From Rhodothermales bacterium (lineage in GTDB: Bacteria > Bacteroidota > Rhodothermia > Rhodothermales > VXPQ01), in NCBI GenBank assembly GCA_965116435.1, contig OZ220686.1, positions 1,594,844 to 1,658,843 on the forward strand: DNA of 64,000 bases, read 5' to 3'. Under the pieces are notes generated by a model that was given only the letters and a program-made list of their open reading frames with translations, did no database searches and was not told the origin of the DNA. How positions within the stretch are numbered: the stretch's first letter is position 1; each line of letters opens with the position of its first letter. Below are positions 7,332 to 57,148 of the stretch, piece by piece. A program made the translations under genes and the position numbers.

Positions 7332-7832
7332 GAGCCTTATCTGTTACTTACAGAATGTTACGTACGAGCCTGCGCCGAACGCGACCGGGGCAAGGCGGCG
7401 GGGAGACGATCCCCGGCCCGGTATGCCCGGTGTGCGCCGTGCGGCGGGCGCGTAAAAACGCGTAAAAAATGGAGCGCCCCGGCCCCTGCAGGCGCAAGAA
7501 GCACCCGAAGTCGGCGCCGGGGCGTCTCCCGAAAAGGACGCGCTCCCGAGCGGTGGATAGAAGAACCTCTACCTTGAACAATGCGGGAATCACTCGCATT
7601 CTTCCGATCGTCCCTGCCTTTCCGAAGAAAAGACCTCGCTTGCGTGCAAGGAGGGTGGGCCTGCCGTCCGAATGTGAAGACCGACTCCCTTATGAATATC
7701 CTTGTCAGGTTCTAATATGCATCCGCAACAGGTGCGCGCTATCCCATCCGTTTATGGACAGGAATAGGCTTTTTAACGGCAGAAGCGTCAAGGGTTCCCC
7801 ACCCGATCGCCCAGCCCGATCACACTGGCCGA

Positions 7833-17376: not shown

Positions 17377-18411
17377 TTGGCGCCTTCCCCGGAAACTGTG
17401 TCGAACAGTGATCTTGCATATCAGGAACGTATTCTGCAAGGCGTTTCCCGCACCTTTGCCCTCACGATCCCGCAGTTACCGACCGGGCTGCGCGACGTCG
17501 TAGGGAATGCCTACCTCCTGTGCCGCATCACGGACACGATCGAAGACGATCCGGCCCTCTCCGCCGAACAAAAACGAGCGTTCGCAGAACGTTTCGCCGA
17601 CATCGTCGCAGGACGAGAAGACGCCGAACCGTTTGCGCGCGAACTCGGCCCCCTGCTGTCGTCTTTTACCTCCCCGGACGAACGCGACCTGATCGCCCAC
17701 GCCGACCGCGTTATCCGCCTTACCAGCGGATTCAACGCCGCCCAGCGAGGCGCCCTCGAACGTTGCGTCCGCATTATGGCGCACGGCATGGCGGAATTTC
17801 AACAGAGCGCCACGCCGAACGGCCTGAACGACATCCCGCACCTGGATCGCTATTGCTACTACGTAGCGGGCGTCGTAGGCGAAATGCTCACCGAGCTGTT
17901 CTGCGACTATTCCAGCGAGATCAACGAACATCGCGAGGAATTGCTGGCGCTGGCCGTTTCCTTCGGACAAGGCTTGCAAATGACCAACATCCTCAAGGAC
18001 ATATGGGACGACCGGGAGCGCGGCGCATGCTGGCTTCCGCGGGACGTCTTTCTCGCCGCCGGTTTCGACCTGCACGCCCTGTCTCTGGACCAGACCCATC
18101 CCGGGTTCGCCGAGGGATTATCCGAACTGGTCGGCGTCGCCCGCCAACACCTCGAAAACGCGCTCCGGTACACCCTGATCATACCTGCCCGCGAAACGGG
18201 CATTCGGCGACACTGCCTGTGGGCGCTGGGCATGGCCGTACTAACCCTCCGACGCATTCACGCAACGCCTGCGTTCCGCAGCGGACAGGAGGTGAAAATT
18301 TCCCGGCGCAGCGTGTGGACGGTGGTTATCGTCACCAGCATCCTGGCGCGCTCGAACCGGGCGCTGACGTTCCTTTTCAGGGCCATGGCGAAACGGTTGC
18401 CTTCCTCGTGA
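17377..18411 (+). CDS. Squalene synthase (farnesyl-diphosphate farnesyltransferase), SQS_PSY family
   Basis: [12 protein letters not shown], Asp-rich [18 protein letters not shown], second Asp-rich NILKDIWDD. The DTxED form is SQS-like rather than CrtB-like. TTG start in the track. Confidence 0.78.
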
Positions 18412-18603: not shown

Positions 18604-19806
18604 GTGATCGCAGAACCGGAATATATCCCCTCGTGTTATCTGCCCGGCTACGCCAAGGCCCGGGCATTGAACGCTGAACGGGCAGCCAATCATGTGGCCC
18701 ACTCGCTTATCGGAGACCCCGAAGCCGATGAGGTGATTGAACACATGGAGGCGATGCAGCCTGGCGAGGCGGCGCGATTATACAAGCTGGGAATAAACGC
18801 AGCTGATCCCGCGGAACGGGATCAGCTCTTGCGCGACGCCCCGCCCGCATTGCGGGATTTCCTGAACAAGCTGGATACGCCGCCCGACTGGGTCGATCTG
18901 TCGGCCTGTGGTCCGGGCGTACGCATGTTTCACAGGAATTCGCATCTGGTGCTCGGCGCCTTTGTCGGGGGCACCCTCATAGAGGGATTCGCGACGAACA
19001 TCAGCAAGTCTTTTTTCATAACCGGGCGAGTTCGGGAATACGGCGTCAGGCGTTTACGACAGAATAACCGCCACATGTTGGAAATATTCATGCCGGGCGG
19101 CCTGGGACGAGGCGGCGACGGCTGGAAATTGTCCATGCGCATCCGACTGATCCACGCACAAATAAGACACCTCCTGAACAACGCGGAAGACTGGGATACG
19201 GAAGCATGGGGCGTACCTATTAGCGCGGCGCATATGGGCTTCTCCATCGCAGCGTTTTCCGCAAGGTTGCTTAAGCATCTGAAAAGCCTGGGCGCTGGAT
19301 ACAGCCACGAAGAACGCGAGAGTTTTATGCAAATCTGGCGCTATTCGGGATTTTTAATGGGCGTTCCCGAAACGATTTTGTACCACGACGAGGAAGAGGC
19401 GTTAGAGATATTTCGCATAGGCCGCATGTGCGAACCTTCGAGCGAACTGGAAGCCGTCGCCATGGCGAATGCATTGATCAACTCGGCCCCGCTGGTGATA
19501 GGCGTTACGGAATCGAGCGCCCGATTCGCCTTGGCCCAGTATGTATACCGGGTGTCCCGGGCGCTCATTGGAAACGACCTGGCCGATGCGCTGAAATACC
19601 CTGCGGGCCGGACCTTCGGCGTACTGCCGTTGTTCCGGCTTCAGTCTCGTTACGCCAGCATCATCGAACGCTTGTTCCCGAACCGCAAAAAAGGAGGAGG
19701 CTTCTCCCGATTCACGGCCCTGCTTGAAGCCTCTGCATTCGATATCGCGGGCATAAACTTCAGAATGCCGGAGAAATTGTATGCGGAACAAGACATCAAT
19801 TATTAG
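18604..19806 (+). CDS. MpaB/Lcp-family oxygenase (DUF2236), paralog 1
   Basis: WKLSMRIRLIHAQIRHLL motif and overall collinearity with the next two ORFs. GTG start. Confidence 0.7.
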   Translation: MIAEPEYIPSCYLPGYAKARALNAERAANHVAHSLIGDPEADEVIEHMEAMQPGEAARLYKLGINAADPAERDQLLRDAPPALRDFLNKLDTPPDWVDLSACGPGVRMFHRNSHLVLGAFVGGTLIEGFATNISKSFFITGRVREYGVRRLRQNNRHMLEIFMPGGLGRGGDGWKLSMRIRLIHAQIRHLLNNAEDWDTEAWGVPISAAHMGFSIAAFSARLLKHLKSLGAGYSHEERESFMQIWRYSGFLMGVPETILYHDEEEALEIFRIGRMCEPSSELEAVAMANALINSAPLVIGVTESSARFALAQYVYRVSRALIGNDLADALKYPAGRTFGVLPLFRLQSRYASIIERLFPNRKKGGGFSRFTALLEASAFDIAGINFRMPEKLYAEQDINY

Positions 19807-19883
19807 CATGCAATAGAGGGTCCGGGTTTGGCCATCCAGGAAAGATCCGTCCGATTTACTTGATCAACACGCAGGATAAAGCC

Positions 19884-21053
19884 ATGCGCATGCCCTCCGC
19901 ATATCAAGACGGTTACGAGAAGGCGCGTGCCCTATACCCAGAGCTGGCGGACGCCTATATTGAGAATACCCTTGTGGGCGATCCTGTGGCGGACGCCGCC
20001 ATGGAGTCGCTGGCGGAATGTAGCCAGGAAGACAGGCATCGCTTTATCAAGGCAGGCATGGAGCGCGACGAGGAAGGCCTGCGAGCCGCTCCGAACGCAC
20101 TGCAGGAGTTTTTCGCCGTCCTTGACCGGCCGCCGCCGTTCGAGTTCGACCCGGAACTGGCGGCCATTGGCTCTCGTGCTTTCTACAAATATTCGGATAT
20201 GTTCTTCGTCGGGTTGGTGCTGGATTCGCTCATCACTGGCCTCAGCGAAGGATTAGCAAAAGCGTTCTATATTACAGGGCGAACGGCGGGAAATAGCCGT
20301 AGAGTCAAGCAGAATACCAGGCATGTGGTGGAGATTACCTTGCCGGGCGGCATGGAACGAATGGGCGATGGCTGGAAACTAACCGTTCGCATTCGCCTCA
20401 TCCATGCGCAGGTGCGGCTGCTATTGCTCAATTCGGACGAATGGGACGTACCCACGGAAGGGGTGCCGCTCAATATGGCGCATATGGCATTGGCGGGCAC
20501 AGGATTTTCCGCGATCAACCTGCGGTCGGCGAGGAAGTTGGGCGTACGGTTGACAAAGGACGAAAGCGCCGGCTTCATGCACATTTGGCATTATGTCAAC
20601 TGGTTGCTGGGCGTACCGGAAAGTCTGCTGTACCGCACCGAAGACGAGGCCTTGCGCATCCGGAAAATCGCCCGCGCCTGCGAGATTCCCCCCGGCGAAA
20701 AGGCCATTGCCGTAGCGCACGGCTACATCAACACCGTCCCTGAACTGCTCGACGTCCAGGAGCCCGCCAAGCAGCAAAAACTCCTCAACGGCCTGTTTCG
20801 GGTCTCGCGGGCATTGATTGGAAACGAACTGGCCGACGCCCTCGATTTCCCCAGGCAAGCGACGTTCGGGATTCTGGCGCTGACGCGGCTGCAACGGCAG
20901 TTCCAGATCCTCCGTTCAAAAATCGTTCCGGGGGCTATGCCGCATGCCGTGGAGAATTTTTCGGGGCTGATACATCGGTCCGTGTACGACAAAAGCGGAA
21001 TCAGTTACCGCATGCCCGACGCCGTGAAAGGGGACGAGTCGAGTTGGTGGTAG
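19884..21053 (+). CDS. MpaB/Lcp-family oxygenase (DUF2236), paralog 2
   Basis: WKLTVRIRLIHAQVRLLL. N-terminus MRMPSAYQDGYEKARAL aligns with the paralog 1 and 3 N-termini, so the ATG at 19884 is preferred over the TTG at 19860. Confidence 0.7.
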   Translation: MRMPSAYQDGYEKARALYPELADAYIENTLVGDPVADAAMESLAECSQEDRHRFIKAGMERDEEGLRAAPNALQEFFAVLDRPPPFEFDPELAAIGSRAFYKYSDMFFVGLVLDSLITGLSEGLAKAFYITGRTAGNSRRVKQNTRHVVEITLPGGMERMGDGWKLTVRIRLIHAQVRLLLLNSDEWDVPTEGVPLNMAHMALAGTGFSAINLRSARKLGVRLTKDESAGFMHIWHYVNWLLGVPESLLYRTEDEALRIRKIARACEIPPGEKAIAVAHGYINTVPELLDVQEPAKQQKLLNGLFRVSRALIGNELADALDFPRQATFGILALTRLQRQFQILRSKIVPGAMPHAVENFSGLIHRSVYDKSGISYRMPDAVKGDESSWW

Positions 21054-21108
21054 TGCTTCGTGCTTCGCGGGCAAGCCCATGAAACTACGCGCGGCGCGGA
21101 TGAACGCG

Positions 21109-21143
21109 CACCGCACCGGCGGATACGTAACCAATGGGGCCTG
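21109..21143 (+). repeat. 35-bp direct repeat, copy 1 (caccgcaccggcggatacgtaaccaatggggcctg)
   Basis: 33/35 identical to 22547-22581. Contains the quasi-palindrome GGATACGTAACC. Lies 56 nt after the paralog 2 stop. Confidence 0.8.
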
Positions 21144-21263
21144 ACGAGTGCGCTACGCAGAGCAAGGAGCGTCGACAAACGACGGAACAAAGCAGGAAAC
21201 AGGCTGGTCTACAAGTCGTTCAGAGGTTTTCCAGGCACGATTGGACAGATTTTTAAATACGCC

Positions 21264-22444
21264 ATGATGCAGGTACCTTCAGCGTATGTCAAGGGATATG
21301 CGAAAGCCAAGGCTGTTGACCCGGTAACGGCCGACAAGTACATCAAGCATACCACCATAGGCGACCCTGAGTTGGATCCCGTGATGGAGGAGATTTCATC
21401 GTTGCCCCCTGGCGATCTGCATCGATTCACCAAGGCAGGCATAGAACAGGAGGAGGAAGTTCTGCGTACTGCGCCGCAAGTCTTGCGCGATTTCTTTGAC
21501 AAGACTGACCGTGATACTCCTCCGTGGCTGGACTACAACGAGTTTGAACCAGGGCAGCGCGCCTTCTACGCAAACTTGAACAACATGCTCATTGCATACG
21601 CTATCGGAAGCGCCGTAGAAGGCTTTTCGACGCTTGTCAGCAAGTCTTTCTCGATTACCGGACGCGTAACCGGTGGGGGAGCAGGCGCCGAAAGACGTCT
21701 CAGGCAGAATAACCGACACATGGTTGAAGTATATTATCCTGGTGGAATGCAACGGGATGGTGACGGATGGAAAGTATCCATGCGCATTCGTTTCATACAT
21801 GCCCGGGTAAGGAAACTGCTGGCGGACTCAAGCCTTTGGGAGTACGAGGCTTGGGGAGTACCGCTGAGCGCAGCGCATACAGGAGGCATCTCCTTGTTCA
21901 CTTTTTCCATACGCCAGTTCGAACACGCATGCGCGATGGGTTCGAAAGTAAGCACGGAACAAAAAGAAAGCATTATTAAAATTTGGCGTTATGCCGGCTA
22001 TCTGTTGGGAGTGCCTGAATCCATACTCTTTGCCAATGAAGAAGAAGCGAGAAAAATTTACAAAATCGGCCATATGTGCGAACCACCGCCGGATTCCGAT
22101 GCGAAAAACTTGGCGAATATGGTATTCAAGGTCTTACCGACCATGGCGGGTCTGACGGACGAGGCTAAAAGAAAAGTTTGGAAATGTATGCCTACCGCCT
22201 TTCGCGAGCCCTTATAGGCAACAAACTTGCGGACCAGTTTCAGTACCCGAGAACTTTCAGAATAAGACCGCTGGTGCTGGCTTATTACCGGATAAAAAAT
22301 CATTTGCCTAATCTCATGAAGAATATCGGCAGCCAGCAAGAGGATGCGTTTTCTCAGATTTTCGATGCCACGCAGTATGACAAGGGCGGGATAAGCTACA
22401 AGATGCCCGACCATGTGCGTGCGTCGAAGTCCAACCTATGGTAA
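21264..22444 (+). pseudogene. MpaB/Lcp-family oxygenase paralog 3, interrupted by a -1 frameshift in an A-rich run (~22167-22175)
   Basis: 21264-22217 (..WKVSMRIRFIHARVRKLL..) ends prematurely. The frame opening at 22178 continues ..YRLSRALIGNKLAD..GISYKMPD.., collinear with the paralog 2 C-terminus (..FRVSRALIGNELAD..GISYRMPD..). Confidence 0.7.
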
Positions 22445-26835: not shown

Positions 26836-26908
26836 GGTCCCGTAGCTCAGTTGGTAGAGCAACTGACTTTTAATCAGTGGGTCGCAGGTTCGATTCCTGC
26901 CGGGATCA
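26836..26908 (+). tRNA. tRNA-Lys (anticodon TTT)
   Basis: Manual cloverleaf: acceptor GGTCCCG/CGGGATC (one G-U), D-arm GCTC-AGTTGGTA-GAGC, anticodon arm ACTGA-CTTTTAA-TCAGT, T-arm GCAGG-TTCGATT-CCTGC. No encoded CCA. Confidence 0.9.
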
Positions 26909-26985
26909 CGCATACACAGATACACAACAGAATACGCATAACACAACGTACGCATAAGAGTACGCATAACACGCGTACGCAACGG
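26909..26985 (+). repeat. Imperfect short-motif repeat (tacgcataa x3 plus tacgcaa, and acacaPu runs) in the tRNA-tRNA spacer
   Basis: ...atacgcataacacaacgtacgcataagagtacgcataacacgcgtacgcaac... A GC-rich long-range stem follows (ggaagcgccc ... gggcgcgcttcc, ~26985-27052). Confidence 0.6.
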
Positions 26986-27064
26986 GAAGCGCCCACTGGA
27001 GAACGCGCCGAGCGATCCGCGACCGGAATCCGGCGTTCGCCGGGCGCGCTTCCATATAGTCCAT

Positions 27065-27148
27065 GCCCGGGTGGCGGAATTGGTAGACGCACTGTCTTGA
27101 GGGGGCAGCGTTCGAAAGGACGTGCTGGTTCGAATCCAGTCCCGGGCA
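27065..27148 (+). tRNA. tRNA-Leu (anticodon GAG), long variable arm
   Basis: Acceptor GCCCGGG/CCCGGGC. Anticodon arm CTGTC-TTGAGGG-GGCAG. Variable arm ~GCGTTCGAAAGGACGT. T-arm GCTGG-TTCGAAT-CCAGT. Confidence 0.9.
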
Positions 27149-27165
27149 CATTACATACTCCCTCC

Positions 27166-27585
27166 ATGCAAACGCGAGCGGACGCACTCGCCTATATTCG
27201 CCGGCACGGCGAAGAAACGTATCCAGAGGAATGCTGCGGCTTTCTGATCGGACGCCTGTGCGCAGCCGGCAACGATGTGGTCTATGCGCGCCGCGCCGTA
27301 AACCGCAACGCAACGAGGCGAGAAGACCGGTATGTCATTGCGCCCGGAGACTACCTTGCAGCGGATAGCGCCGCTCGCACGGAGAATCTGGACATTGTGG
27401 GCGTCTACCACTCGCACCCGGACCATCCGGCGATTCCTTCCCGAACGGATCTGGAACTGGCGACCTTCCCGGGATACGCCTATGTGATCGTGTCTGTGGA
27501 AAACGGAAAAGCCGCCGCGCTTTCGGCATGGTCGCTCGCCGAAGACCGCTCGCGGTTTCTGCCGGAAGAAATACGTATTCTTTAG
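27166..27585 (+). CDS. JAB/MPN (JAMM) metallopeptidase, Mec+/RadC-less stand-alone type
   Basis: EECCGFLIG (catalytic Glu) and HSHPDHPAIPSRTD (HxHx7Sx2D JAMM motif). The track ORF from 26464 runs across both tRNA genes, so only the part from ATG 27166 is credible. Confidence 0.85.
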   Translation: MQTRADALAYIRRHGEETYPEECCGFLIGRLCAAGNDVVYARRAVNRNATRREDRYVIAPGDYLAADSAARTENLDIVGVYHSHPDHPAIPSRTDLELATFPGYAYVIVSVENGKAAALSAWSLAEDRSRFLPEEIRIL

Positions 27586-27632
27586 GATGCGCTGATCATA
27601 CGCGCTGCCTCGGAAACATCCTGACGCTGGAC

Positions 27633-29084
27633 ATGCCCCGCATTCACATTCCCTCCCCGCTACAGGCGTACGCGGATGGCCAGCGCACCGTAGATATCGA
27701 AGGCGCCACCGTCGGCGAAGCGCTGGCGAACCTGGTGCGGAAGCACCCGGCACTCGAAAAGCACCTCTTTGCAGAAACCGGCAAGCTCCGGCAATTCGTC
27801 AATATCTATCGCAACGAAGAGGACATTCGCTACCTGGACCGCGAAAAAACCGGGTTGGACCCGGCGGACGAAATCTCTATCGTGCCGTCGGTGGCCGGAG
27901 GAAAAGACGGCGACGCCTGCACGGCGCCCGCCCTGAACCCGGAAGAAATCAGACGGTATGGCCGGCACCTGACCCTGCCCGAGTTCGGCATGGCGGGCCA
28001 ACGAAAACTCAAGGCGTCTTCCGTGCTCGTCGTGGGCGCCGGAGGGCTGGGTTCGCCGCTGGCCCTGTACCTTGCCGCCGCCGGGGTCGGCAAAATCGGC
28101 CTCGTAGACTACGATGCGGTAGACGAAACCAACCTGCAACGGCAGATTCTGTACGGAACGAAGGATGTAGGGCGGAAAAAACTGGCGGTGGCCCGCGAAC
28201 GGATCCGCGATGTGAATCCGTTCGTCGATGTGGAAACGTTCGACGTGGCGCTGGCGAGCGACAATGCGCTGGACATTTTTTCGGGGTTCGACCTCGTGGC
28301 GGACGGAACGGATAATTTCCCTACGCGCTACCTGGTGAACGACGCCTGCGTGATGCTGGGCATTCCGAACGCCTACGCCTCTATTTTCCGATTCGAAGGG
28401 CAAGCGTCCGTATTCGGGGCGCCGGATGGCCCGTGCTACCGGTGCCTGTACGAAGAGCCTCCGCCTCCCGGGCTTGTCCCCTCCTGCGCAGAAGGCGGCG
28501 TGCTCGGCGTCCTGCCGGGGCTGGCGGGCGTGGTGCAAGCCGCCGAAGCCATCAAAATGCTTACCGGCGTGGGCGAGCCGCTCGTCGGGCGCTTGCTCCT
28601 CATCGACGCCCTCGGCATGCGCTTCCGGGAGCTGCGCATCCGCCGCAATCCTGCGTGCCCGGTATGCAGCGACCATCCTTCCCAAACCGAACTGATCGAT
28701 TATCAAGCCTTCTGCGGCATTCCATCTTCCCCCAACGGCAACGCCATGAAACAGCAAACATCTCTCCCCGAAATCACGGTGCGCGCACTGAAAGACAGAA
28801 TGGACCGGGGGGACCGCCCCTTTATTCTGGATGTGCGCAAGCCGCACGAATACGACATTGTCAACCTGGGCGGCGCGCTCATCCCGCTGGACGAACTGCC
28901 GGAACGGCTGGACGAACTGGAAGACCGCAAACAAGAAGACATCGTGGTCCACTGCCGCTCGGGCGGACGCTCTGCGCAAGCGGTGCAACTGATGCGTGCG
29001 CACGGATTCGAACAGGCCTGCAACCTGAAAGGCGGCGTGCTGGCCTGGAGCGAAGAAATCGACCCCTCCATGCCCACGTATTAA
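27633..29084 (+). CDS. Fusion protein: MoaD/ThiS-type ubiquitin-like domain (ends ..VAGG), MoeB/ThiF/MoeZ-type E1 adenylyltransferase, and rhodanese
   Basis: aa 1-90 are beta-grasp-like and end IVPSVAGG (GG codons at 27897-27902). RYGRHLTLPEFG..VLVVGAGGLGSP (Rossmann). CYRC and CPVC zinc pairs. SCAEGGVLG catalytic loop. C-terminal rhodanese with HCRSGGRS. Confidence 0.85.
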   Translation: MPRIHIPSPLQAYADGQRTVDIEGATVGEALANLVRKHPALEKHLFAETGKLRQFVNIYRNEEDIRYLDREKTGLDPADEISIVPSVAGGKDGDACTAPALNPEEIRRYGRHLTLPEFGMAGQRKLKASSVLVVGAGGLGSPLALYLAAAGVGKIGLVDYDAVDETNLQRQILYGTKDVGRKKLAVARERIRDVNPFVDVETFDVALASDNALDIFSGFDLVADGTDNFPTRYLVNDACVMLGIPNAYASIFRFEGQASVFGAPDGPCYRCLYEEPPPPGLVPSCAEGGVLGVLPGLAGVVQAAEAIKMLTGVGEPLVGRLLLIDALGMRFRELRIRRNPACPVCSDHPSQTELIDYQAFCGIPSSPNGNAMKQQTSLPEITVRALKDRMDRGDRPFILDVRKPHEYDIVNLGGALIPLDELPERLDELEDRKQEDIVVHCRSGGRSAQAVQLMRAHGFEQACNLKGGVLAWSEEIDPSMPTY

Positions 29085-31804: not shown

Positions 31805-33145
31805 ATGCGTTTTCTCCTTTGCCTCCTTGCGCTACCCGCTCTTGCCCTCGCCGAACCCGCGTTCGCCCAGGACGCCGCGCCAGAATCCGCGCTGTCCGGC
31901 GCCGATACAGCGTGGATGCTGATTTCCACCGCCCTGGTTCTGTTGATGACGCCGGCGCTCGCCTTTTTCTACGGCGGGCTGGTTCGCGCCAAAAACACGC
32001 TCAACACCATGATGATGAGCTTCATTTCCCTGGGCGTCGCCGGCGTGCTCTGGGCCCTGTTTGGATACTCGCTGGCCTTCGGGGACGGCAACCTGTGGAT
32101 CGGGGACTTCTCGATGGCGTTCCTGAACGGGGTAGGCCTGGAGCCCGACGGCAGCATTCCCTCGTTGCTCTTCATGGCCTTTCAGGGGACGTTCTTCATC
32201 ATTACCGTTGCGCTGATCTCCGGCGCCGTGGTCGAGCGGATGCGCTTCAAGGCCTACCTGCTTTTCCTCCCGCTGTGGGCGCTGCTCGTCTATGCTCCGG
32301 TGTGCCACTGGGTATGGAGCGGGAACGCCTGGCTGGGAGACCTGGGCGCGCTCGACTTCGCAGGAGGCGCCGTCGTGCACATCAATGCCGGGGTAGCCGC
32401 CGTAGTAGCGGCGGTCGTCCTTGGCGTCCGCAAGGATTACGGCAGACAAGCCATCATTCCGCATAATGTGCCTTTCGTGCTTCTGGGGGCAGGATTGCTC
32501 TGGTTCGGCTGGTTCGGCTTCAATGGGGGAAGCGCCCTCGCCGCGGACGGCGTCGCAGCGCTTGCGCTGGTAAACACCATGCTGGCGCCCGCCGCCACGC
32601 TCACCGTCTGGAGCGTAATAGATATGGGCCGCACGGGCAAAGTCACCGCCGTGGGCGCCGCCACCGCCATTGTGGTCGGCCTCGTAGCGATCACGCCCGC
32701 CGCCGGATTCGTTTCGCCAATCTCCTCCTTGTTGATCGGCGGCATTACGGCCTTTCCGTGCTATTTCGCCATTCAGTGGCGCGCGCGTACGCGTCTGGAC
32801 GATTCCCTCGACGTATTCGCCGCGCACGGCCTTGGCGGCATCATGGGGGCCCTTCTGACCGGCGTATTTGCAGAAAGCGCCTGGGGCGGCGCGGACGGAC
32901 TGCTTTTCGGCAATCCGATGCAGTTAGGCGTACAGGCGCTCTCCGTGGTCGCCGTCATGCTCTATAGCGGCATCGTTACGTTTCTCATCCTCAAGATCGT
33001 CGGCCTCGTCACGGCCTTGCGCCCGGGCATTCCGCACGAAGGCATGGGACTGGATATCGCCAGCCACGGCGAAGAAGCCTACTCCGACGGCGAAGGCATC
33101 GTGCTGCTGCTCGACGAGGAAATGCGAACGCCTTCCGCCGCATAG
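31805..33145 (+). CDS. amtB: Ammonium transporter (Amt family)
   Basis: DTAWMLISTALVLLMTPALAFFYGGLVR, AGGAVVHINAG, FAAHGLGGIMGALLTG. Preceded by an AT-rich ~120-bp promoter region. Confidence 0.93.
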   Translation: MRFLLCLLALPALALAEPAFAQDAAPESALSGADTAWMLISTALVLLMTPALAFFYGGLVRAKNTLNTMMMSFISLGVAGVLWALFGYSLAFGDGNLWIGDFSMAFLNGVGLEPDGSIPSLLFMAFQGTFFIITVALISGAVVERMRFKAYLLFLPLWALLVYAPVCHWVWSGNAWLGDLGALDFAGGAVVHINAGVAAVVAAVVLGVRKDYGRQAIIPHNVPFVLLGAGLLWFGWFGFNGGSALAADGVAALALVNTMLAPAATLTVWSVIDMGRTGKVTAVGAATAIVVGLVAITPAAGFVSPISSLLIGGITAFPCYFAIQWRARTRLDDSLDVFAAHGLGGIMGALLTGVFAESAWGGADGLLFGNPMQLGVQALSVVAVMLYSGIVTFLILKIVGLVTALRPGIPHEGMGLDIASHGEEAYSDGEGIVLLLDEEMRTPSAA

Positions 33146-33198: not shown

Positions 33199-33564
33199 AT
33201 GAAATTAGTCAGAGCGATCATTCGGCCCGAAAAACTCACCGATGTGCTCACCGAATTGTTCAAAGCGGAAATCACCGGCCTTACGGTGACGCGCGTTCGC
33301 GGCCACGGCGGCGAAACGGAAATCGTGGAAACCTATCGGGGCACCACGGCGAAAAAAGAACTCACCGAGAAAATCATGCTGGACATCGGCGTCTCGGATC
33401 CGGTGCTCGACACAGCCATCAACACCTTGCTTGCAGCAGCCCGCACGGGCGAAGTGGGCGACGGGAAAGTTTTCGTGATTCCGGTAGAAAAAATCTACCG
33501 GATTCGAACCGGCGAAGAAGACATCTCTGCCGTTACGCCCGTCTCTACCGAGGCGCACGCATAG
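33199..33564 (+). CDS. glnK: Nitrogen regulatory protein P-II (GlnK-type, amtB-linked)
   Basis: MKLVRAIIRPEKL...VTRVRGHGGE...TGEVGDGKVFV. Position immediately after amtB. Confidence 0.9.
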   Translation: MKLVRAIIRPEKLTDVLTELFKAEITGLTVTRVRGHGGETEIVETYRGTTAKKELTEKIMLDIGVSDPVLDTAINTLLAAARTGEVGDGKVFVIPVEKIYRIRTGEEDISAVTPVSTEAHA

Positions 33565-33945: not shown

Positions 33946-34104
33946 GGCTTCGGGTCGTGTATTCTTTGTTAGAAAATTGTAACGAATTGTACTTGCAATC
34001 CGTCGCGGGCAAGCATAAAATGGAAGGTAACGAATGGGCTACCATCCTATGCCTCACCCCCACTCGGTTCGTTGCCTCGAACCGCCACCCGCTTGATACA
34101 GTAC

Positions 34105-35565
34105 ATGCCTTCCGCCACTGCCGAAAAAACGTGGGAAACCTGTCTCACCCAAATTTCCAACCAAATAACCAAGCAGTCTTTTCACACCTGGTTCGCGCCG
34201 ATCCGGCTAATCAACCTGGAAGAGAACCACGAGACTGCGCGGCTCCGTTTGGCTGTCCCCAACGCCTTTCATACCGAATGGCTGGAGTCTCATTATGCGC
34301 ACGTCGTCCGGAAAACCGCCTCCCAAGTCCTTGGTAGACAGACCAGCGTCGCCTACGAGATCGAACCGGAGATAACGCCAGCCAACGACAAGGCCGAACC
34401 CGCGGTCTTGCCGCCCAAACCTGCGCGACAGAACAGGGAATACCTGCCTCGCGCCTGGCCCGCCGCACCGGCCCCGCCAGAACGCCCCGCCCCGCGCACC
34501 GCACCCATCCGGAATACTTCGCTCAGGCCGGAGTACACCTTCGATTCATTCATCGAGGGCGATTCCAACCAGTTTGCCCGCGGGGGCGCCGTCGCGATTG
34601 CCGAAGACCCGAAAGGCACCGGGTACAATCCCTTTATGATCTACGGAGACACCGGACTGGGCAAAACCCACCTGGTACAGGCGATCGGAAACTACGCCCT
34701 GCAGAAAAACGCGAACCTGCGCGTCCATTACGTATCGGGCGAGCAGTTCACGTCCCAGTTCATCCACTCGATTCAGGAGAACCGGATCCACCGTTTCTCC
34801 AACTTCTACCGGCAAATCGACTTGCTGATCGTGGATGACGTGCAGTTTCTGAGCGGCAAGGAGAAAACGCAGGAGGAATTCTTCCACATCTTCAACGAAC
34901 TCCATCAACGGGGCAAGAAGATCATCCTCTGCGCCGACCGCCCCCCCTCCGCGATCACCGGAATACAGGAACGCCTGCTGTCGCGCTTTCAATGGGGGCT
35001 TTCCGCAGACATTCAGCCGCCCGAACTGGAAACGCGCATCGCCATTTTGCAACACAAGGCGTTCAAGATGGGCGTATCCCTGCGCACGGATGTGCTGGAA
35101 TTCGTGGCGGAACGGATCCGCGCCAACATCCGGCAACTGGAAGGCGCGTTACACAAGTTGTCTGCGTACGTTACGCATCACCACCAGGATATCGACGTCA
35201 ACACGGCGAAAGGCATCCTCCAGGATCTGATGGAGGATTGCCAGGTGCGCCTCGAAATCGAGGACATCCAGCGTTGCGTAGCCCAGTTTCACGGGATCAA
35301 ACCCGAGTTGCTTGCGGCCAAGACGAAGAAACAGGAGGTGGTCACCGCACGCCACCTTGCCATGTACTTTTGCAGGAAACTAACCTCGCATTCCCTGAAA
35401 AGCATCGGGCAGCGCTTCGGCGGGCGCGATCACTCGACAGTGATACATGCGTGCAAAGCAGTCGAAAACCGCATCGAACTGGAAGATGCGTTCCGGAACG
35501 AAATGACGGTCGCCCGGGAACGGCTCGAACGCTACACGCCCGGCCGCTCGGGCAGGCATGGATAA
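34105..35565 (+). CDS. dnaA: Chromosomal replication initiator protein DnaA
   Basis: W..CL..I...I..QSFHTWF N-domain, AAA+ GDTGLGKTHL, DDVQFL, C-terminal DNA-binding RHLAMYF..LT..SL..IG..FGGRDHSTVIHA. ATG 34105 preferred over the TTG at 34072. Confidence 0.95.
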   Translation: MPSATAEKTWETCLTQISNQITKQSFHTWFAPIRLINLEENHETARLRLAVPNAFHTEWLESHYAHVVRKTASQVLGRQTSVAYEIEPEITPANDKAEPAVLPPKPARQNREYLPRAWPAAPAPPERPAPRTAPIRNTSLRPEYTFDSFIEGDSNQFARGGAVAIAEDPKGTGYNPFMIYGDTGLGKTHLVQAIGNYALQKNANLRVHYVSGEQFTSQFIHSIQENRIHRFSNFYRQIDLLIVDDVQFLSGKEKTQEEFFHIFNELHQRGKKIILCADRPPSAITGIQERLLSRFQWGLSADIQPPELETRIAILQHKAFKMGVSLRTDVLEFVAERIRANIRQLEGALHKLSAYVTHHHQDIDVNTAKGILQDLMEDCQVRLEIEDIQRCVAQFHGIKPELLAAKTKKQEVVTARHLAMYFCRKLTSHSLKSIGQRFGGRDHSTVIHACKAVENRIELEDAFRNEMTVARERLERYTPGRSGRHG

Positions 35566-41429: not shown

Positions 41430-43709
41430 TCAATAGGAATCGACGTCGAACTGCTTCCAGCCCACGTCTACGACGACGATGTCCTTCGCTACGCCATCCT
41501 GCATCAGCTTGACAAGCGCTTTGTACGGAAAATCCAGATTCAAGTCGCTTAGCCGGATGGAACCGCCGGAACCGGACAGTTCAACGCGATGCTCTTCCAT
41601 CATCGTCAGGTTGTCCACCGTGTTGATATGCACGACGCTCTCGGCCAACGCATGACGAACCTCCACGTGCAGGGAATCGTCCTGCACGGAAACATGCAGG
41701 TTGGCAGGCATGCCAACAATGACCGCCATGTCGTCCGCAAGCTCTTCCGGCATAATCAACTGCGTCTTGTCCGCCACGCGGCGGGAAAGAATGGGCTGAT
41801 GATTCCACACGTCCACGTACCGCCAATCTTCCGGGTGGTCCACTTCCATGAAGGGTCCAAGGACCCGGCGAGGATCCATGCGGTCAGCGAGGTCGACGCC
41901 GGAACGCTTGAGTGCGTAGGCGGGATACACCGCCTTGTCCTGAGACACGAACGCATTCACAAAAAGGTCGGGGTGTAACGCGGGTACGAGCGGTTCCGGG
42001 ACGTCCGTCAGGTACCCATCCCTGTGCTCGCGGATGATCCGGCTATAGCGGTGGATCATGATCCGCTCATCCCATGGATACCGATTCATCTCCCCGAAAA
42101 TATCCTCCCATACGATGAATCCCGTGCCATTGAACAAGGCATTGAGAATCAGCTCGCGGCGGTCCCGGGCGCTGCGGTTTATGTTATGTACGTTGTGCTC
42201 GGGTAGAACGAAGCGAAACAGGTCCACATTGGGCATCTTGTTCGTGGCGGCGCCCTGCTGATTCCAGCTGCCCGTCACGAGTTCGGCGGCCGCCAGAACC
42301 GGGCGCCCTTCGCTCACGAAAACATTCTCCGGGTTTACGGCGTCGAGCGCTTCCCGAAAAGCCGTGTCGGATTCCCGCATCGTGTCAAGAAACACCCCGT
42401 CCGCGCCAATGGCCTCGGCAATGCGCGCCTCCTCCGTAAAATGATTCTGGCCCTTGCGCATGATATCCCACGGCTTGTAGGGAATGAACACCTGTACGTC
42501 CCGCAGGTGTGCGCGCTCCACCATTTCGCGCAACCCCTCCAGACCCCCCGGAAGGTCTTCGTACATCGCAAACTGATCCCGGTCGTCGATGCCCATCCGG
42601 GGATAATCGTGCCAGAGAAGCATGTAATCGTAGCCTCCGAAATTCGCCTCCCCCTCGTCCAGAAATTCGTCGATTCGGAAGCGGTTCTCTTCGAAATCAT
42701 AGATGTCCCTTCCGTATAGAAACGTGAAGTGAGACACGAAACGCTGCCGGTATCGCTCCTGCACAGGCCGCTGGTAATAGGTAAAATCAAAATTATCGCG
42801 AATGTGTTTTCTGAACACCCGAAAGGCTTCATGCCAATCGCCTTCGTGCGGCGCAATGCGCGCATCCATCACCCGCGCCTCATGCTGAGGGTCCTGATCC
42901 AGCAAAAACGTATGGTGGACGTATTCGTCCTTGTTCTCGAAATCCCATTCGAGCGCCGAGTTGAGCATGTGAAAATACACCCCGGAATTCGTCTCGTCGC
43001 TGTACACGTCGATGGGCATTTTCGGATCGGTCCCGCGGGTAAAGTAGAACACGAAATCGTCCGGGCTATCGATGCAGAAGAATCGGTCCTGCGTCGGGAT
43101 CAGATAATGCCTTCCCGCCTCCGGACCTATCGCAATATCCTGCATCAACGGGAAACGAATCTGGCCCTGGACGGACTGCGCCTCCCGGTAATCCACGCCG
43201 GCCGTGGAATTATTCTTGACGTCCGCCGTCCAGTGCAGTTCGACCCCATCGCCCAACGTGAACCGCTGCGTCACGATAAACATATTCTCCACATAACTCG
43301 AGCGATGGCGGGATACGACGCCGACGCGCCCTTCCATCTGCACTTCCTCGAGGGTCAATATATCATACCCCACGTCATTTAAGGGCCAGGGCTGGCGCAC
43401 CGATACGAACGGCAGCGGGTCATTGCCCGCAAGCAGGTCTGCACCGCTCCTTTTATCGACCAGCTCGGCCAGGCGCACGCCGCGATCCAGCGAAAGCACA
43501 TACCGCACATGGTCGTTCTCCAGGACCACATGCCGCGGATTTTCGCGGTCGGGAATATAGCGTATTTCGGCGTCCGCAAGCGTTGCCAGAGGAACGCTCA
43601 TGGATAGAAACAGCAGGGCGGCTGCCAGAACGAAGAAGCGCTGTGGACGTATTCCGGTATGCATGAGAGGCGGGCGCAAGACAGGATGGACAGGAGAAGA
43701 TGAGCGCAT
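41430..43709 (-). CDS. Secreted hypothetical protein (759 aa), possible glycoside-hydrolase-like TIM-barrel core
   Basis: Signal peptide after an alternative Met (MHTGIRPQRFFVLAAALLFLSMSVPLATLADA). Central GGYDYMLLWHDYP...VFIPYKPWD...GADGVFLDTM looks like beta-strand-end acid/aromatic motifs of (beta/alpha)8 enzymes. Weak. Confidence 0.35.
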   Translation of the reverse strand: MRSSSPVHPVLRPPLMHTGIRPQRFFVLAAALLFLSMSVPLATLADAEIRYIPDRENPRHVVLENDHVRYVLSLDRGVRLAELVDKRSGADLLAGNDPLPFVSVRQPWPLNDVGYDILTLEEVQMEGRVGVVSRHRSSYVENMFIVTQRFTLGDGVELHWTADVKNNSTAGVDYREAQSVQGQIRFPLMQDIAIGPEAGRHYLIPTQDRFFCIDSPDDFVFYFTRGTDPKMPIDVYSDETNSGVYFHMLNSALEWDFENKDEYVHHTFLLDQDPQHEARVMDARIAPHEGDWHEAFRVFRKHIRDNFDFTYYQRPVQERYRQRFVSHFTFLYGRDIYDFEENRFRIDEFLDEGEANFGGYDYMLLWHDYPRMGIDDRDQFAMYEDLPGGLEGLREMVERAHLRDVQVFIPYKPWDIMRKGQNHFTEEARIAEAIGADGVFLDTMRESDTAFREALDAVNPENVFVSEGRPVLAAAELVTGSWNQQGAATNKMPNVDLFRFVLPEHNVHNINRSARDRRELILNALFNGTGFIVWEDIFGEMNRYPWDERIMIHRYSRIIREHRDGYLTDVPEPLVPALHPDLFVNAFVSQDKAVYPAYALKRSGVDLADRMDPRRVLGPFMEVDHPEDWRYVDVWNHQPILSRRVADKTQLIMPEELADDMAVIVGMPANLHVSVQDDSLHVEVRHALAESVVHINTVDNLTMMEEHRVELSGSGGSIRLSDLNLDFPYKALVKLMQDGVAKDIVVVDVGWKQFDVDSY

Positions 43710-47734: not shown

Positions 47735-49771
47735 TTACTTGACAATGACGAACTTGCCGACCTTGCTTTCGCCCTCGTGCCCTGGAACATGCGACTCCAC
47801 ATGGAACAGGTATATGCCCGGCGCCACGCGCTGCAAATACTCGTTGACCTGATAATCTGCGGTTGCCCGCGACCCCCAAGCCTCGTCGCCGCTGCCGTCC
47901 GTGTGGTCGATGACGCGAACCAGTTCCCCGGCAAGCGTATAGATGCGAATGGTGCATTGCGCCGGAATGTTCACGAACTCGATGCGGTAGCGCTCTCCCT
48001 CCCCGAGAAGCTGGCTGTGCTGGAAGAAAGGATTCGGATATACCCGAATATCGTCGAGATTATCGCTGGGCTTGGCCTGGGGATACACGGGATCCACATT
48101 GACATTGACCTGCCCGCTCTCCAGCGAAGGCAAGCTGGTTATGCTCGGATCGCCCGGCCAGGGGGTATTGTGTCCCGTGTCGTAGCTGGTCACGGTGTAA
48201 TACACGCCCACGCCCAACTCCAGCCCGGAATCGTTGTAGGTGACCATCCCGCCCTCCATTTCCGCCGCATTGACGGGGATATCCGCGATCATCGTCCAGG
48301 GACCGATGTTGCGGTGCGTCGAGCGGTACACCCGGTAGCCCGCCACATCGTTGACGTTGTAGTCCGGGTCCCGGTACGAGTCGGGAATGGCGGGCCACTG
48401 CACCTTGATGCCCAGCGGAATAGCCGTCAGCGTCAGCGAATTGTTGCCGTTCGTCGGCGTGGGGGGAGGATCCGGCGCTTCGTACCCGCGGTCGTACAAC
48501 TCCTGCGCCGCGTCCACATGCTTCCACAGCCTGACGCCCCCCTCGGGCAAACGCGCTTCGTTTTCGAGCCCGCCCTCTGCAACGTATTTCATATCCATCA
48601 TGCCCGCCGCCACGACCAGCACGAATTTCAGCGACTGGCCCGGCGCCATTTCGTACGGACCCGTCTCATAGATATAGTCTATATGGTATTCGTACCGTCC
48701 CCGGGGACGCGTCGTAAGCCCAAGGCGGGCCGCCTCGGCGGCGAGGGACTGGCCGTCCTCCGTTTCGGGCGGCAACGGCTGATCGTACGTCAGCGACTGA
48801 TAGATGTAATTATCCGTGTCGAAGTCCACCTCCGGGTTGTCGTTCAGCGGATCGTCCTGAATGCGGTTCGAATGCTGGTTCAGGTTGGACTTGTCCACGA
48901 TATTCATGTGATCGCGCTCGGACGGGTCGGACTTGACCGGCTTGTCCAGCCAGTAGTACGTGAAGTACTGCGGCGCCAGGAACTCGTGGTTTATGGCGCT
49001 GGGCGCGTCGAGGTCGGCCGGCTCGCCGAGGTCGCTCCTCGTGAGCCCGAATGGCCGGGGCGGCGCCGGATTGGCCGTGTCGCCGTCCCGCTCCACGCCA
49101 TCCCGGAAATAGAACGCCTCGTGTGCGATATCCCATTCGTACACGTCATCGTCGGACCTGCCGCGAATAGGCAGCGCGATATTCATGGCGCCCGTCGGAG
49201 CGAACCGGAAGTTCGTAATGGCGCTACTGCCCTCGTTCGTAAACGTGTACTCCTGGATGATGAAGTCGTCGTAGTCTGGATAACTCCAGGCGAGGGCGCG
49301 AAAATCAACCCGGACGTCGTACTCGTTGATGCGATGCGCGCCGGTAACCATTTCTTCCGCCTTCAGCGACGGGTCCGCCATGTTGTAATTCGCAATGAGT
49401 TTGGTGCCTTCGACCGGAGAGATGAACGTCGGGTTGTGGTCGTACGCCAGAAGGACGCGGAACGGATAGCCAATGCCGTCGATGTCCGCCCACGTCATAT
49501 ACCCGGACCACAGGAGCCAGCCGCCATGATCGTTCACGTTGCTGCCCAGCGCATGGCCCGGATAATCGTACTTGTAGTACTCCTGGCCGCCCAGCGTCGG
49601 CTGCCCCACGCCGCCTGAATTCCACAGGCGAGCCCAGAGCCTGGCGCGCGTCAGGTCCTTGAAATCGAAGACGGCCTGCGCGGAGGCCGGAGCAGCTAAT
49701 ATTCCAGGCAACAGGCTGCAAACCATTGCGGCGGCGACCAAAAGGCGCAGTACGGTGTGTAATGCATTCAT
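47735..49771 (-). CDS. Secreted protein with T9SS-type (FlgD-Ig-like) C-terminal sorting domain
   Basis: Start at MNALHTVLRLLVAAAMVCSLLPGILAAPASA. C-terminus VYPNPF...CTIRIYTLAGELVRVI...GIYLFHV...KFVIVK is a Por_Secre_tail-like pattern. Confidence 0.7.
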   Translation of the reverse strand: MNALHTVLRLLVAAAMVCSLLPGILAAPASAQAVFDFKDLTRARLWARLWNSGGVGQPTLGGQEYYKYDYPGHALGSNVNDHGGWLLWSGYMTWADIDGIGYPFRVLLAYDHNPTFISPVEGTKLIANYNMADPSLKAEEMVTGAHRINEYDVRVDFRALAWSYPDYDDFIIQEYTFTNEGSSAITNFRFAPTGAMNIALPIRGRSDDDVYEWDIAHEAFYFRDGVERDGDTANPAPPRPFGLTRSDLGEPADLDAPSAINHEFLAPQYFTYYWLDKPVKSDPSERDHMNIVDKSNLNQHSNRIQDDPLNDNPEVDFDTDNYIYQSLTYDQPLPPETEDGQSLAAEAARLGLTTRPRGRYEYHIDYIYETGPYEMAPGQSLKFVLVVAAGMMDMKYVAEGGLENEARLPEGGVRLWKHVDAAQELYDRGYEAPDPPPTPTNGNNSLTLTAIPLGIKVQWPAIPDSYRDPDYNVNDVAGYRVYRSTHRNIGPWTMIADIPVNAAEMEGGMVTYNDSGLELGVGVYYTVTSYDTGHNTPWPGDPSITSLPSLESGQVNVNVDPVYPQAKPSDNLDDIRVYPNPFFQHSQLLGEGERYRIEFVNIPAQCTIRIYTLAGELVRVIDHTDGSGDEAWGSRATADYQVNEYLQRVAPGIYLFHVESHVPGHEGESKVGKFVIVK

Positions 49772-49858
49772 AGCGGGGGATAACTTGGTTTGCAGGTTCC
49801 AGACTGGTATGCGAGCAAGCGCATGGCGCGGCGCTGCCGCCCCGCCATGCGCCACGGA

Positions 49859-52800: not shown

Positions 52801-52954
52801 CGGGAAGCCCCTGGCCGTTGGAAGCGTCGGTCACGGTTCCGGCTATTTTGCCGGTCGTTTGGGCTGTTGCAGCAGGAACAGCGATCAATGCGAGGACGGC
52901 CAGAAGGGCCAGCGTTACGCGGATAACGGAAAGAGGGCTTGACATTGCGTTCAT
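49859..52954 (-). CDS. SusC-like TonB-dependent receptor with CarboxypepD_reg domain (no SusD partner)
   Basis: Start at MNAMSSPLSVIRVTLALLAVLALIAVPAATA. GKIAGTVTDASNGQGLPGVNVVIVGTTTGAVTDADGDYFI. Plug and a large barrel. C-terminal ...FTVGLKF. Confidence 0.82.
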   Translation of the reverse strand: MNAMSSPLSVIRVTLALLAVLALIAVPAATAQTTGKIAGTVTDASNGQGLPGVNVVIVGTTTGAVTDADGDYFIINVSPGAYDVQASSIGFVTTTVQHVEVFVDQTTTIDFDLGEEVLEGEEVLVFAERPLVERDVTGSVHRLNAEALARTPIQNIDDILAQQAGIYNTGYTAYLRGGVQSEVNYQVDGTSLNSGLISDNWQRLNTTSIQEVSVLTGGYNAEYGNAMSGVVNVVTHEPSAFSRHYGGALNYRMRPAGKYHWGSNMYSEDLWKYTNFDLGYWQTQLETEANRNSYAEYFRRFYGWDGARVPTANELLDTYQEQITPSDVLANYAERMQHEAEGSVWGSPMDHLTFLVSGRYKRGVNIFPQANEYNPEYNIQAKLGYHFSPGKKLTLNVTNGWYHSSTLTESNWNNTTTSQEARWQPNADVRDPYVGSAYAPWGGYWLKGPEEKNFSVGTLKWDHTLNSRTFYTVALSYLRDYTTSLQEYDKLNTNTETVRWGDSWFDLAGNFRLEARQIQVNNYSDSRAWTGKADITSQLHKSHQVKAGVEVKLYDVDYQHYYMEFPAGDVWHLDNVFDGNPAEAALYVQDKMEYEGIVLNVGIRFDAFNARTMYSPNIYDPLLFQTHNGGDGTHPNNIAPIWQAHRPGKDWFAFRQDFRDAFPDNWQDMQTVSSEWKAAISPRLGLSFPITENSKLRFSYGHFNQRPSWVSLMGFPTSWYDAAPYATVRMDQWQGWYGHPGLSYDRTIQYEIGFTQNFFDFARLDLAAYYKDASRLTRFAYNGTYNRNGGGFASTGWGAGNSAGSTWSKTRNIANDGHDNIFYTNNGFKDIRGIEIVAEKLFTGRWSARGAFDFSTTTGGSAGYSQYREDGSTVNQPHSYEETKGTWLSSYTVKGNVSYVTPQSLARGALGDITVGMYHEYFAGPQYTYYPTDYQGVQTPNNKRWSPHHRTDLTFNKQVSVGNFRPLIGVEVFNLFNYKDKILLNGDNLERWEESGELPKITKSGEDNLWFFYNAVSNPRRMIYFTVGLKF

Positions 52955-53200
52955 GCGTTGAACCGGGAAACCGGGCAGATTTTGCAAAAATGGCGGGGAA
53001 GTTTCTCTTTTGGAGCGTTGCGCAAGCATCCCGGGCATGCTTCTGGTCCCGGGACACATGGCCTTCCATAACAGTACATACCCCTCCATTTCAAGAGGGG
53101 CCTATGCCGCCTTGGCAAGGATTATTTAACAAAAATTAAATGGTTCATGCAAAATTCAACGGGAACTTCATTAAAAATTCATCTTTATTGCTTGATTATT

Positions 53201-56471: not shown

Positions 56472-56585
56472 GGTGGTTCGGCTTCGTCGGGCAGCGTTTC
56501 CGGGTTTTAAGATGTAGAATTGCGATCTTGTCCCAATCCAACCAACCCAGAGAAAACTTCCCATGCCCACATTCAAAATCAAGAA
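56472..56585 (+). mobile_element. Solo copy of a nested IS junction: ~42 nt of an IS5-like 3' end plus an IS3-family left end. It extends through the transposase RBS/ATG and now forms the 5' region of the restriction gene
   Basis: About 90% identical over ~91 nt to the reverse complement of 60372-60462. Both copies run into an ATG at the same offset (56563 vs 60371). Confidence 0.75.
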
Positions 56586-57144: not shown

Positions 57145-57148
57145 CCAT

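Follow-up and report, generated by a model that had tools for sequence, protein, structure and literature searches.

The locus described here raises the question of how a sulfur-carrier protein can work when its C-terminal Gly-Gly is buried inside a longer chain, joined to the enzyme that would activate it. The locus lies in a 64,000-nucleotide stretch from a Rhodothermales bacterium (assembly GCA_965116435.1, contig OZ220686.1, positions 1,594,844 to 1,658,843), referred to below as the window. A gene for a JAMM/MPN+ protease is followed there by a second gene in which a ubiquitin-like (Ubl) beta-grasp domain, a linker, an E1-like adenylyltransferase and a rhodanese form one polypeptide. The most probable answer, to which we give a probability of about 0.72, is that the locus encodes the CysO/MoeZ/Mec+ protein-thiocarboxylate sulfur-carrier system in a fused form, from which the neighbouring JAMM protease would cut the carrier free. 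The features on which this rests are as follows, in window coordinates.

27065-27149, plus strand: tRNA-Leu(GAG), upstream boundary of the cassette (ARAGORN).
27150-27165: 16-nt junction from tRNA-Leu to the JAMM gene, site of about 2.2 kb missing by comparison with relatives.
27166-27585, plus strand: JAMM/MPN+ zinc metalloprotease gene (Mec+-like), 139 amino acids (aa) (Pfam Prok-JAB).
27229-27231, plus strand: codon of the JAMM catalytic Glu22, within EECCGF.
27409-27450, plus strand: JAMM catalytic motif HSHPDHPAIPSRTD (H82, H84, S92, D95), from the sequence and invariant alignment columns.
27633-29084, plus strand: Ubl-linker-E1-rhodanese fusion (CysO~MoeZ), a single open reading frame (ORF) of 483 aa (ORF list; Pfam ThiS, ThiF and Rhodanese).
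27633-27902, plus strand: CysO-like beta-grasp sulfur-carrier domain, residues 1-90, with C-terminal IVPSVAGG (PDB sequence matches, AF2 model, Foldseek).
27897-27902, plus strand: codons of Gly89-Gly90; the JAMM cut is predicted after 27902, and Gly90 is the predicted adenylation/thiocarboxylation site (invariance).
27903-27956, plus strand: variable, disordered linker KDGDACTAPALNPEEI... joining Ubl to E1 (predicted local distance difference test (pLDDT), length variation, ratio of nonsynonymous to synonymous substitution rates (dN/dS)).
27957-28664, plus strand: MoeB/MoeZ-type E1 adenylyltransferase domain (Pfam ThiF, NCBIfam, Foldseek).
28779-29054, plus strand: C-terminal rhodanese domain (Pfam Rhodanese), with active-site Cys441 in HCRSGGRS at 28953-28955.

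The listed ORF of the fusion gene opens at ATG 27528, where it overlaps the JAMM gene. Since the homologues of the fusion protein all begin at an equivalent position, MPRIHIP or MARIYIP, the true start was placed at ATG 27633, which gives the 483-aa product and leaves a spacer of 47 nt between the JAMM gene and the fusion gene downstream of it. The cleavage "after Gly90" of the preliminary description, which had been made from the letters of the stretch, is correctly numbered from this ATG and not from the first ATG of the listed ORF.

That description had assigned a JAMM motif to the first gene and, to the second, a MoaD/ThiS-like domain of about 90 aa ending in IVPSVAGG and running without a stop into a MoeB/MoeZ-type E1 and a rhodanese; both assignments hold. 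The product of the first gene matches Pfam Prok-JAB with an E-value of 2.6e-25, and its E22 and canonical HxHx7Sx2D motif are intact, the catalytic residues being invariant in an alignment of eight sequences from three phyla (Rhodothermales, Salinibacter, Acidobacteriota and a Thermoplasmata archaeon). It also matches PDB entry 2KCQ (1.3e-44), a solved structure with almost the same sequence as the JAMM encoded in the cysM operon of Salinibacter ruber; a description of the function of 2KCQ was looked for and none was found. In a relative that is 84% identical, two JAMM halves match in different reading frames (L003:7513-7989), which is either a real frameshift, making the gene a pseudogene, or a long-read assembly error.

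In the second gene product, residues 11-90 match Pfam ThiS (1.5e-11), residues 109-344 ThiF (1.1e-81) and residues 383-474 Rhodanese (3.9e-15), all well above the gathering scores, and the frame stays open from IVPSVAGG into the E1. The E1 carries the nucleotide loop GAGGLGSP, the zinc site CYRC/CPVC and the loop cysteine C285 in SCAEGG; in an alignment of 51 sequences these motifs and HCRSGGRS of the rhodanese occupy invariant or nearly invariant columns, and Cys441 is invariant. Its best NCBIfam names are MoeB (PRK07411, 504 bits) and MoeZ (PRK07878, 475 bits), both of them rhodanese-bearing families and both scoring below their equivalog cutoffs, and its structural matches are MoeB 1JW9 (Foldseek TMt 0.93), ThiF and Uba4 6YUB. 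A match to 6A-MBL cap2_3 was marginal (45 and 19.5 bits against a cutoff of 320).

The solved proteins closest in sequence to the Ubl domain are CysO of Mycobacterium tuberculosis (3DWG_C, 6.3e-12) and of Amycolatopsis (4N6E_B, 2.2e-11), and both chains align with it through their last residue. Because the whole-protein model matched E1 structures only, the fold search was made with an AlphaFold (AF2) model of residues 1-92 (pLDDT 91), which superposes on CysO structures with Foldseek TM scores of 0.86-0.91; the beta-grasp fold that had been supposed for this domain is therefore confirmed. After CysO the best fold matches were SAMP1 and a Thermus MoaD-related protein, whereas bona fide MoaD structures scored much below CysO, and ThiS and TtuB were poor matches (TtuB E-values 0.35-0.59).

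Were the fusion a sequencing or assembly artefact, through a frameshift or a lost stop codon, the real genes would be separate, as they are in the many relatives that have a stop at or shortly after Gly-Gly. Contigs from three independent public runs, which come from three studies and bear three organism labels, nevertheless cross positions 27897-27902 with substitutions only and no indels, and the fused architecture recurs in proteins 84-99% identical from other, independent assemblies. More than 100 full-length homologues have the same three domains. Residues 1-135 were also searched against a library in which each 50%-identity cluster has one representative; of the best 150 matches, about 70 ran continuously through the junction, and the fused form spans Acidobacteriota, Gemmatimonadota, Chloroflexota, Bacteroidota/Rhodothermales, Elusimicrobia and Thermoplasmata archaea. 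Eighty loci taken from species-representative genomes were then surveyed, the fused or split class being checked by eye at each junction; 31 of them are in-frame fusions, in several phyla: 25 with the order PALP-JAMM-fusion, 4 with JAMM and fusion only, and 2 with neither partner within 6 kb. The artefact explanation is thereby excluded for practical purposes. One close relative (P0027, 401 aa) at first appeared to lack the Ubl domain; it was rejected as a start-codon miscall, the ORF at L004:5722-7206 being fused in frame.

The junction itself shows strong conservation up to Gly-Gly and none after it. None of the residues S82, I83, P85, S86, A88, G89 and G90 varies among 51 fused homologues, and the AGG motif, with G89 and G90, is also kept in the split orthologues. 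The linker of the window fusion is a disordered segment of 10-18 residues. Between Gly-Gly and a conserved RYxRH motif, 50 homologues have 12 to 31 residues (median 18), the first of which is usually small, and the linker dN/dS of at least 1 on 8-10 codons indicates no constraint. In the full-length model residues 88-97 (AGG and linker) and 364-376 have pLDDT below 50, whereas the three domains (Ubl, E1, rhodanese) are modelled with confidence, so that these two segments are likely flexible.

Thirty-six unfused orthologues were read at the same junction. Five end right after AGG, and the remaining 31 carry 1-18 more residues, as in AGGAA, AGGC, AGGMY and AGGCVNRAG, each followed by a stop; S. 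ruber has 16 residues after Gly-Gly, and L091, a related locus, has 2. With 31 of 36 unfused carriers tailed, processing after Gly-Gly is the rule in this family, and the fusion is its extreme. A neighbour-joining tree of the E1 part places fused and split loci in alternation down to the sister pairs L012/L016, L011/L038, L062/L064 and L030/L057, and fusion and fission are therefore frequent and, as it appears, neutral. A second Ubl gene was found neither in the surveyed operons nor in the window. E1 enzymes adenylate a free C-terminal carboxylate, and an internal glycine cannot be adenylated. From the invariant AGG, the tails, the interleaving of the two states, the lack of a second Ubl gene and this chemistry we infer that the residues after Gly-Gly are removed.

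The JAMM of the operon is the obvious cutting agent, because the M. tuberculosis enzyme hydrolyses the bond after the same Gly-Gly in CysO-Cys, and it is predicted to cleave the window's fusion after Gly90. The preliminary description had held that the Ubl must be excised by the neighbouring JAMM, and comparison lends this release strong support, through the features of the junction and the tree given above and through the operons: a JAMM gene is adjacent to the fusion in 29 of the 31 fused loci, and in some genomes all four domains, JAMM-Ubl-E1-rhodanese, form single chains of about 620 aa (L086:1131-2996, P0050, P0054 and P0055). Such a four-domain chain is potentially a self-processing polyprotein; the L086 gene sits between cysM (PALP) and a sulfite reductase gene. 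There is precedent for the chemistry, since the MoaD-MoaE fusion MoaX is active only after a cut at Gly82 (PMC4326299) and the JAMM protein DR0402 cuts the MoaD-MoaE fusion DR2607 (PMC8832034), and JAB-mediated freeing of fused ThiS/MoaD domains was predicted in 2006 (PMC1779556).

It is very unlikely that the beta-grasp domain instead stays attached, as a docking, regulatory or auto-inhibitory module acting on the E1 in cis, with some other free carrier as the substrate. The fused domain is orthologous to free-standing carriers with which it alternates on the tree, it has kept AGG without exception, neither the operons nor the window have a further Ubl gene, and established E1 chemistry bars the internal glycine from adenylation. 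What can be said for a permanently attached domain is that a separate ThiS has been described alongside ThiF proteins bearing an N-terminal Ubl fusion, a pattern suggesting a non-carrier role for the fused copy (PMC1779556).

The function of the released carrier is best read from the relatives of the window. Locus L001 (70% identical) shares its flanks, with an SSF transporter gene, aspS, an InPase-like gene and tRNA-Lys and tRNA-Leu that match in sequence on one side, and an aldo-keto reductase gene, GSDH, amtB and glnB on the other. Between tRNA-Leu and the JAMM gene, L001 has a methyltransferase gene and a PALP gene, and the same two genes precede JAMM in L004 and L005 (76% identical). In the coordinates of L001 the arrangement is as follows.

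5203-5293: match to tRNA-Leu.
5517-5966: methyltransferase gene.
6574-7512: PALP gene.
7537 onward: JAB (JAMM) gene.

The PALP protein of the relatives is of the CysM type, scoring 226 bits against Escherichia coli CysM, 186 bits against M. tuberculosis CysM and 329 bits against TIGR01138 (cysM), and the CysM of a syntenic relative, used as query, found orthologues in Rhodothermus, Rhodocaloribacter and Salinibacter. In the cultured species S. ruber, and in L091, the order cysM-JAMM-ThiS-E1/rhodanese is kept as four separate genes. This operon type is row 4c of Iyer, Burroughs and Aravind 2006 (PMC1779556), and a thiocarboxylate route to cysteine by way of Mec+, CysO, CysM and MoeZ is established in M. 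tuberculosis (Burns et al. 2005; PMC3227635). The conserved operon context therefore identifies the system of the relatives as this cysteine route, and supports the view that the window locus is the known cysM-mec-cysO-moeZ system in truncated and fused form. The earlier picture of a self-contained maturation-activation cassette has to be given up in its favour, as relatives carry cysM upstream. The sulfur or conjugation target, which had been called unknown, is largely resolved by the CysM-type synthase encoded directly upstream of the JAMM gene in relatives; in the organism of the window the acceptor is unlinked or changed.

A different arrangement was observed in five loci of Acidobacteriota (Sulfotelmatobacter-like; L025, L033, L035, L037 and L039), which have unfused carriers with tails of 1-2 residues after AGG. 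No JAMM gene was found within 6 kb of any of the five, and no cysM within 6 kb of the first four, while a partial cysM-like match lies on the other strand of L039, at a distance of about 5.4 kb. Either the maturase is encoded elsewhere in these genomes or another peptidase trims the tails.

Several points weigh against the assignment to the CysO system. No cysM was found in the 64-kb window, either by tblastn with a relative's CysM or by Pfam scans of the main ORFs, and no PALP gene stands beside the JAMM gene in the three closest relatives (L002, L003 and L087; 84-89% identical), so that the cysteine role is extrapolated to the organism of the window. A literature search found no paper showing JAMM cleavage of a Ubl-E1 fusion. 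Two of the 31 fused loci, and the one acidobacterial clade of tailed split carriers just described, have no JAMM within 6 kb. The scores of the E1, the JAMM and the PALP are under the NCBIfam equivalog cutoffs, and the resemblance of the Ubl to CysO is only slightly closer than that to SAMP1 and the Thermus MoaD-related protein.

The lack of cysM appears to be secondary. The roughly 2.2 kb holding the methyltransferase and CysM-type PALP genes of the 70-76% identical relatives are missing between tRNA-Leu and the JAMM gene; the tRNAs were mapped in the window and L001 only, and L002, L003 and L087 share the PALP-less layout. The simplest reading is a single ancestral deletion of cysM and the methyltransferase gene next to tRNA-Leu. 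Computed within the resulting cysM-less clade at dS 0.3-1.3, dN/dS was 0.18-0.29 for the JAMM, 0.10-0.16 for the Ubl, 0.07-0.10 for the E1 and 0.14-0.24 for the rhodanese. As JAMM, Ubl and E1 are under purifying selection without cysM, the carrier must still be in use. Its acceptor in the window organism could be a CysM-type gene elsewhere in the genome or some other acceptor, or the carrier could serve as a protein modifier; in M. tuberculosis, moeZ is likewise unlinked from mec-cysO-cysM (PMC3227635). The preliminary description had reported no cysM, moaE or thiG gene adjacent to the cassette, and tblastn and Pfam searches extend this to the whole 64 kb. Pfam scans of the main ORFs of the window detected no MoaE, ThiG or TtuA-type/PP-loop thiolase, nor moaA or moaC, and no E2-like gene was found in the window.

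A tentative and rather doubtful proposal is that the system of this Rhodothermales clade is no longer a cysteine module and has become a free-standing, protease-gated Ubl system, in which the uncleaved fusion would be an inactive zymogen, for the carrier and the E1 alike, that the JAMM switches on; the released Ubl, thiocarboxylated or adenylated, might pass to another acceptor or be attached to proteins in a bacterial, E2-independent conjugation of the Urm1/SAMP kind. Related to this is the view that the released Ubl is a protein modifier conjugated to lysines (as with archaeal SAMP1/UbaA, Thermus TtuB or Urm1), with the JAMM as both maturase and deconjugase, possibly as the main role in the cysM-less clade. 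The Ubl scanned alone does pass the NCBIfam SAMP1 cutoff (63 bits against 60; 59 bits within the full protein), SAMP1 structures are among its top fold matches, and the best NCBIfam match of the JAMM is haloarchaeal desampylase, while the E1 matches SAMP-activating UbaA; the persistence of the genes under selection without cysM fits as well. The desampylase and UbaA scores, however, are far under their cutoffs (87 against 130 bits and 316 against 450 bits), no E2-like gene accompanies the cassette, the orthologous loci are tied to cysM and once to sulfite reductase, and CysO is the best match in both structure and sequence. We regard a modifier function as unlikely to be the explanation of the locus; as the known dual-function carriers keep their sulfur-carrier role, it would add to the CysO-type explanation without excluding it.

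We give little credence to a role in molybdopterin synthesis, in which the released Ubl would be a MoaD-type carrier for molybdopterin synthase, the E1-rhodanese the cell's MoeB, and the JAMM a maturase only. Mycobacterial MoeZR serves both CysO and MoaD (PMC3227635), the top NCBIfam names of the E1 are MoeB, and the fold resembles both SAMP1, which doubles as MoaD, and the Thermus MoaD-related protein. Set against this, moaE, moaA and moaC are absent from the window and from those relatives' loci whose gene tables were read, bona fide MoaD structures fit the Ubl far less well than CysO does, and the gene that relatives keep beside the cassette is cysM. The E1 might nevertheless have a secondary role in serving MoaD.

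On the preferred reading, that of a fused CysO/MoeZ/Mec+ system, events would run as follows. The 483-aa chain is translated as carrier, linker, E1 and rhodanese, as seen in the sequence. The adjacent JAMM would cut after Gly90, separating the E1-rhodanese from a 90-residue carrier whose Gly-Gly carboxylate is now free. By homology to MoeZR, MoeB and Uba4, the E1 would then adenylate Gly90, and the persulfide on Cys441 of the rhodanese would convert it to the thiocarboxylate. In relatives, the CysM-type pyridoxal phosphate enzyme encoded upstream would use the thiocarboxylate to form a CysO-cysteine adduct, and the same JAMM would hydrolyse the adduct after the same Gly-Gly, freeing cysteine and recycling the carrier. 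Adduct formation followed by JAMM release is the published mechanism in M. tuberculosis (PMC3227635). The fusion would thus represent the longest version of a C-terminal tail that is common in the family and that the JAMM must remove anyway.

The expression of the cassette may be linked to the tRNA genes before it. A metatranscriptome contig (27398-27875) covers the 3' end of the JAMM gene, the spacer and the 5' end of the Ubl coding region, which suggests that the two genes are co-transcribed, DNA carry-over in the library being possible. A scan for sigma-70 promoters and terminators around the cassette was uninformative, the phylum using other promoter types. The JAMM gene is immediately preceded by tRNA-Lys(UUU) and tRNA-Leu(GAG) (26836-27165), and in the spacer between the two tRNAs an imperfect direct repeat of 24 nt occurs at 26921-26944 and 26949-26972. 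The 16 nt from the 3' end of tRNA-Leu to the JAMM ATG are too few to hold a separate promoter, and the JAMM-fusion mRNA may be co-transcribed with both tRNAs and freed by tRNA processing.

Other parts of the window hold further genes of interest. A squalene/phytoene synthase gene (17377-18411) is followed by three tandem paralogues of MpaB/Lcp-type oxygenases (18604-19806, 19860-21053 and 21060-22217), and together they are possibly a carotenoid or terpenoid cleavage cluster. Downstream of the cassette are amtB (31805-33145), glnB/P-II (33199-33564) and dnaA (34072-35565), the last of which implies that the window adjoins a likely chromosomal replication origin. Two large minus-strand ORFs without a Pfam match (41430-43709, 759 aa; 47735-49855, 706 aa) have as neighbours a TonB-dependent receptor (49859-53089), a sugar kinase, a RhaT-like transporter and an FGE-sulfatase-domain protein, and may be part of an uncharacterised polysaccharide-utilisation locus. 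A defence islet occupies a stretch of lower GC content (0.50-0.57) at 56563-63981, with the following genes.

56563-57144: MjaI-type restriction endonuclease.
57149-58354, minus strand: N6/N4 DNA methylase.
60859-62145: RmuC.
62368-63981, minus strand: GmrSD-N domain protein.

The pathway, the enzyme families and the release of fused carriers by JAMM proteins are already known or predicted, and the fused architecture is common in databases. The new part is comparative: the carrier-E1 fusion is widespread, fusion and fission have occurred repeatedly, and a tail after Gly-Gly is the norm. The comparative data point to the JAMM as probably indispensable for maturing the carrier, in addition to its recycling role, and the fusion offers an easily tested substrate for the specificity of bacterial JAMM proteases. 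Since the database label "MoeB" hides the carrier domain, metabolic models built from genomes could overlook a cysteine route. What else the carrier can serve is a question for which the cysM-less clade provides a natural experiment.

Among known systems, QbsE/QbsD of thioquinolobactin synthesis and HcyS/HcyD of the Wolinella methionine pathway are cases in which the JAMM of the operon trims the residues after Gly-Gly before activation by the MoeB-type E1. Their tails are a few residues long, whereas the "tail" in the window is a whole E1-rhodanese enzyme of 393 residues. JAMM-processed fusions of MoaD to MoaE are found in M. tuberculosis MoaX, Deinococcus DR2607/DR0402 and Haloferax SAMP1-MoaE/HvJAMM1 (PMC4326299, PMC8832034, PMC4443979). 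Like the window protein, they join a Ubl with an internal Gly-Gly to a pathway partner, and they work only once a JAMM/MPN+ protein has cut them after Gly-Gly; there, however, the partner is the acceptor MoaE of the molybdopterin pathway, whereas in the window it is the activating E1 of a cysteine-type system. Makarova and Koonin (2010) mention in passing a "Ubl-E1-TBP in Thaumarchaeota", said to be shared with bacteria (PMC2948915); its Ubl is N-terminal to the E1 as in the window, but the remark includes no rhodanese, JAMM, cysM or junction analysis. Burroughs et al. (2009), on the E1-like superfamily, may already describe the fusion, and a 2025 review of ThiF-like enzymes has no mention of CysO, JAMM or a Ubl-E1 fusion. 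The window differs from the TtuB/TtuC/TtuA system of tRNA 2-thiolation in having no PP-loop ATPase partner, and TtuB structures are weak fold matches; it differs from the E1-E2-JAB systems (rows 6a-e of Iyer 2006; CBASS/Bil type) in having no E2 and in the rhodanese borne by its E1.

The S. ruber operon, from a related lineage, has the same gene types, a JAMM 56% identical to that of the window and a PALP 64% identical to that of a relative; in S. ruber carrier and E1 are encoded by two genes, cysM is present and the carrier tail is 16 aa long, whereas the window has the fusion and no cysM. In M. tuberculosis the same four protein types are Mec+ (Rv1334), CysO (Rv1335), CysM (Rv1336) and MoeZR (Rv3206c), with CysM represented in the relatives of the window, whose operon order cysM-JAMM-Ubl-E1 brings together the same four gene types. 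In M. tuberculosis CysO is a separate protein and moeZ is unlinked, while in the window the carrier is fused to the E1 and cysM is absent. M. tuberculosis CysO ends exactly at Gly-Gly, and unlike it, a carrier fused to its E1 would need a maturation cut before its first use.

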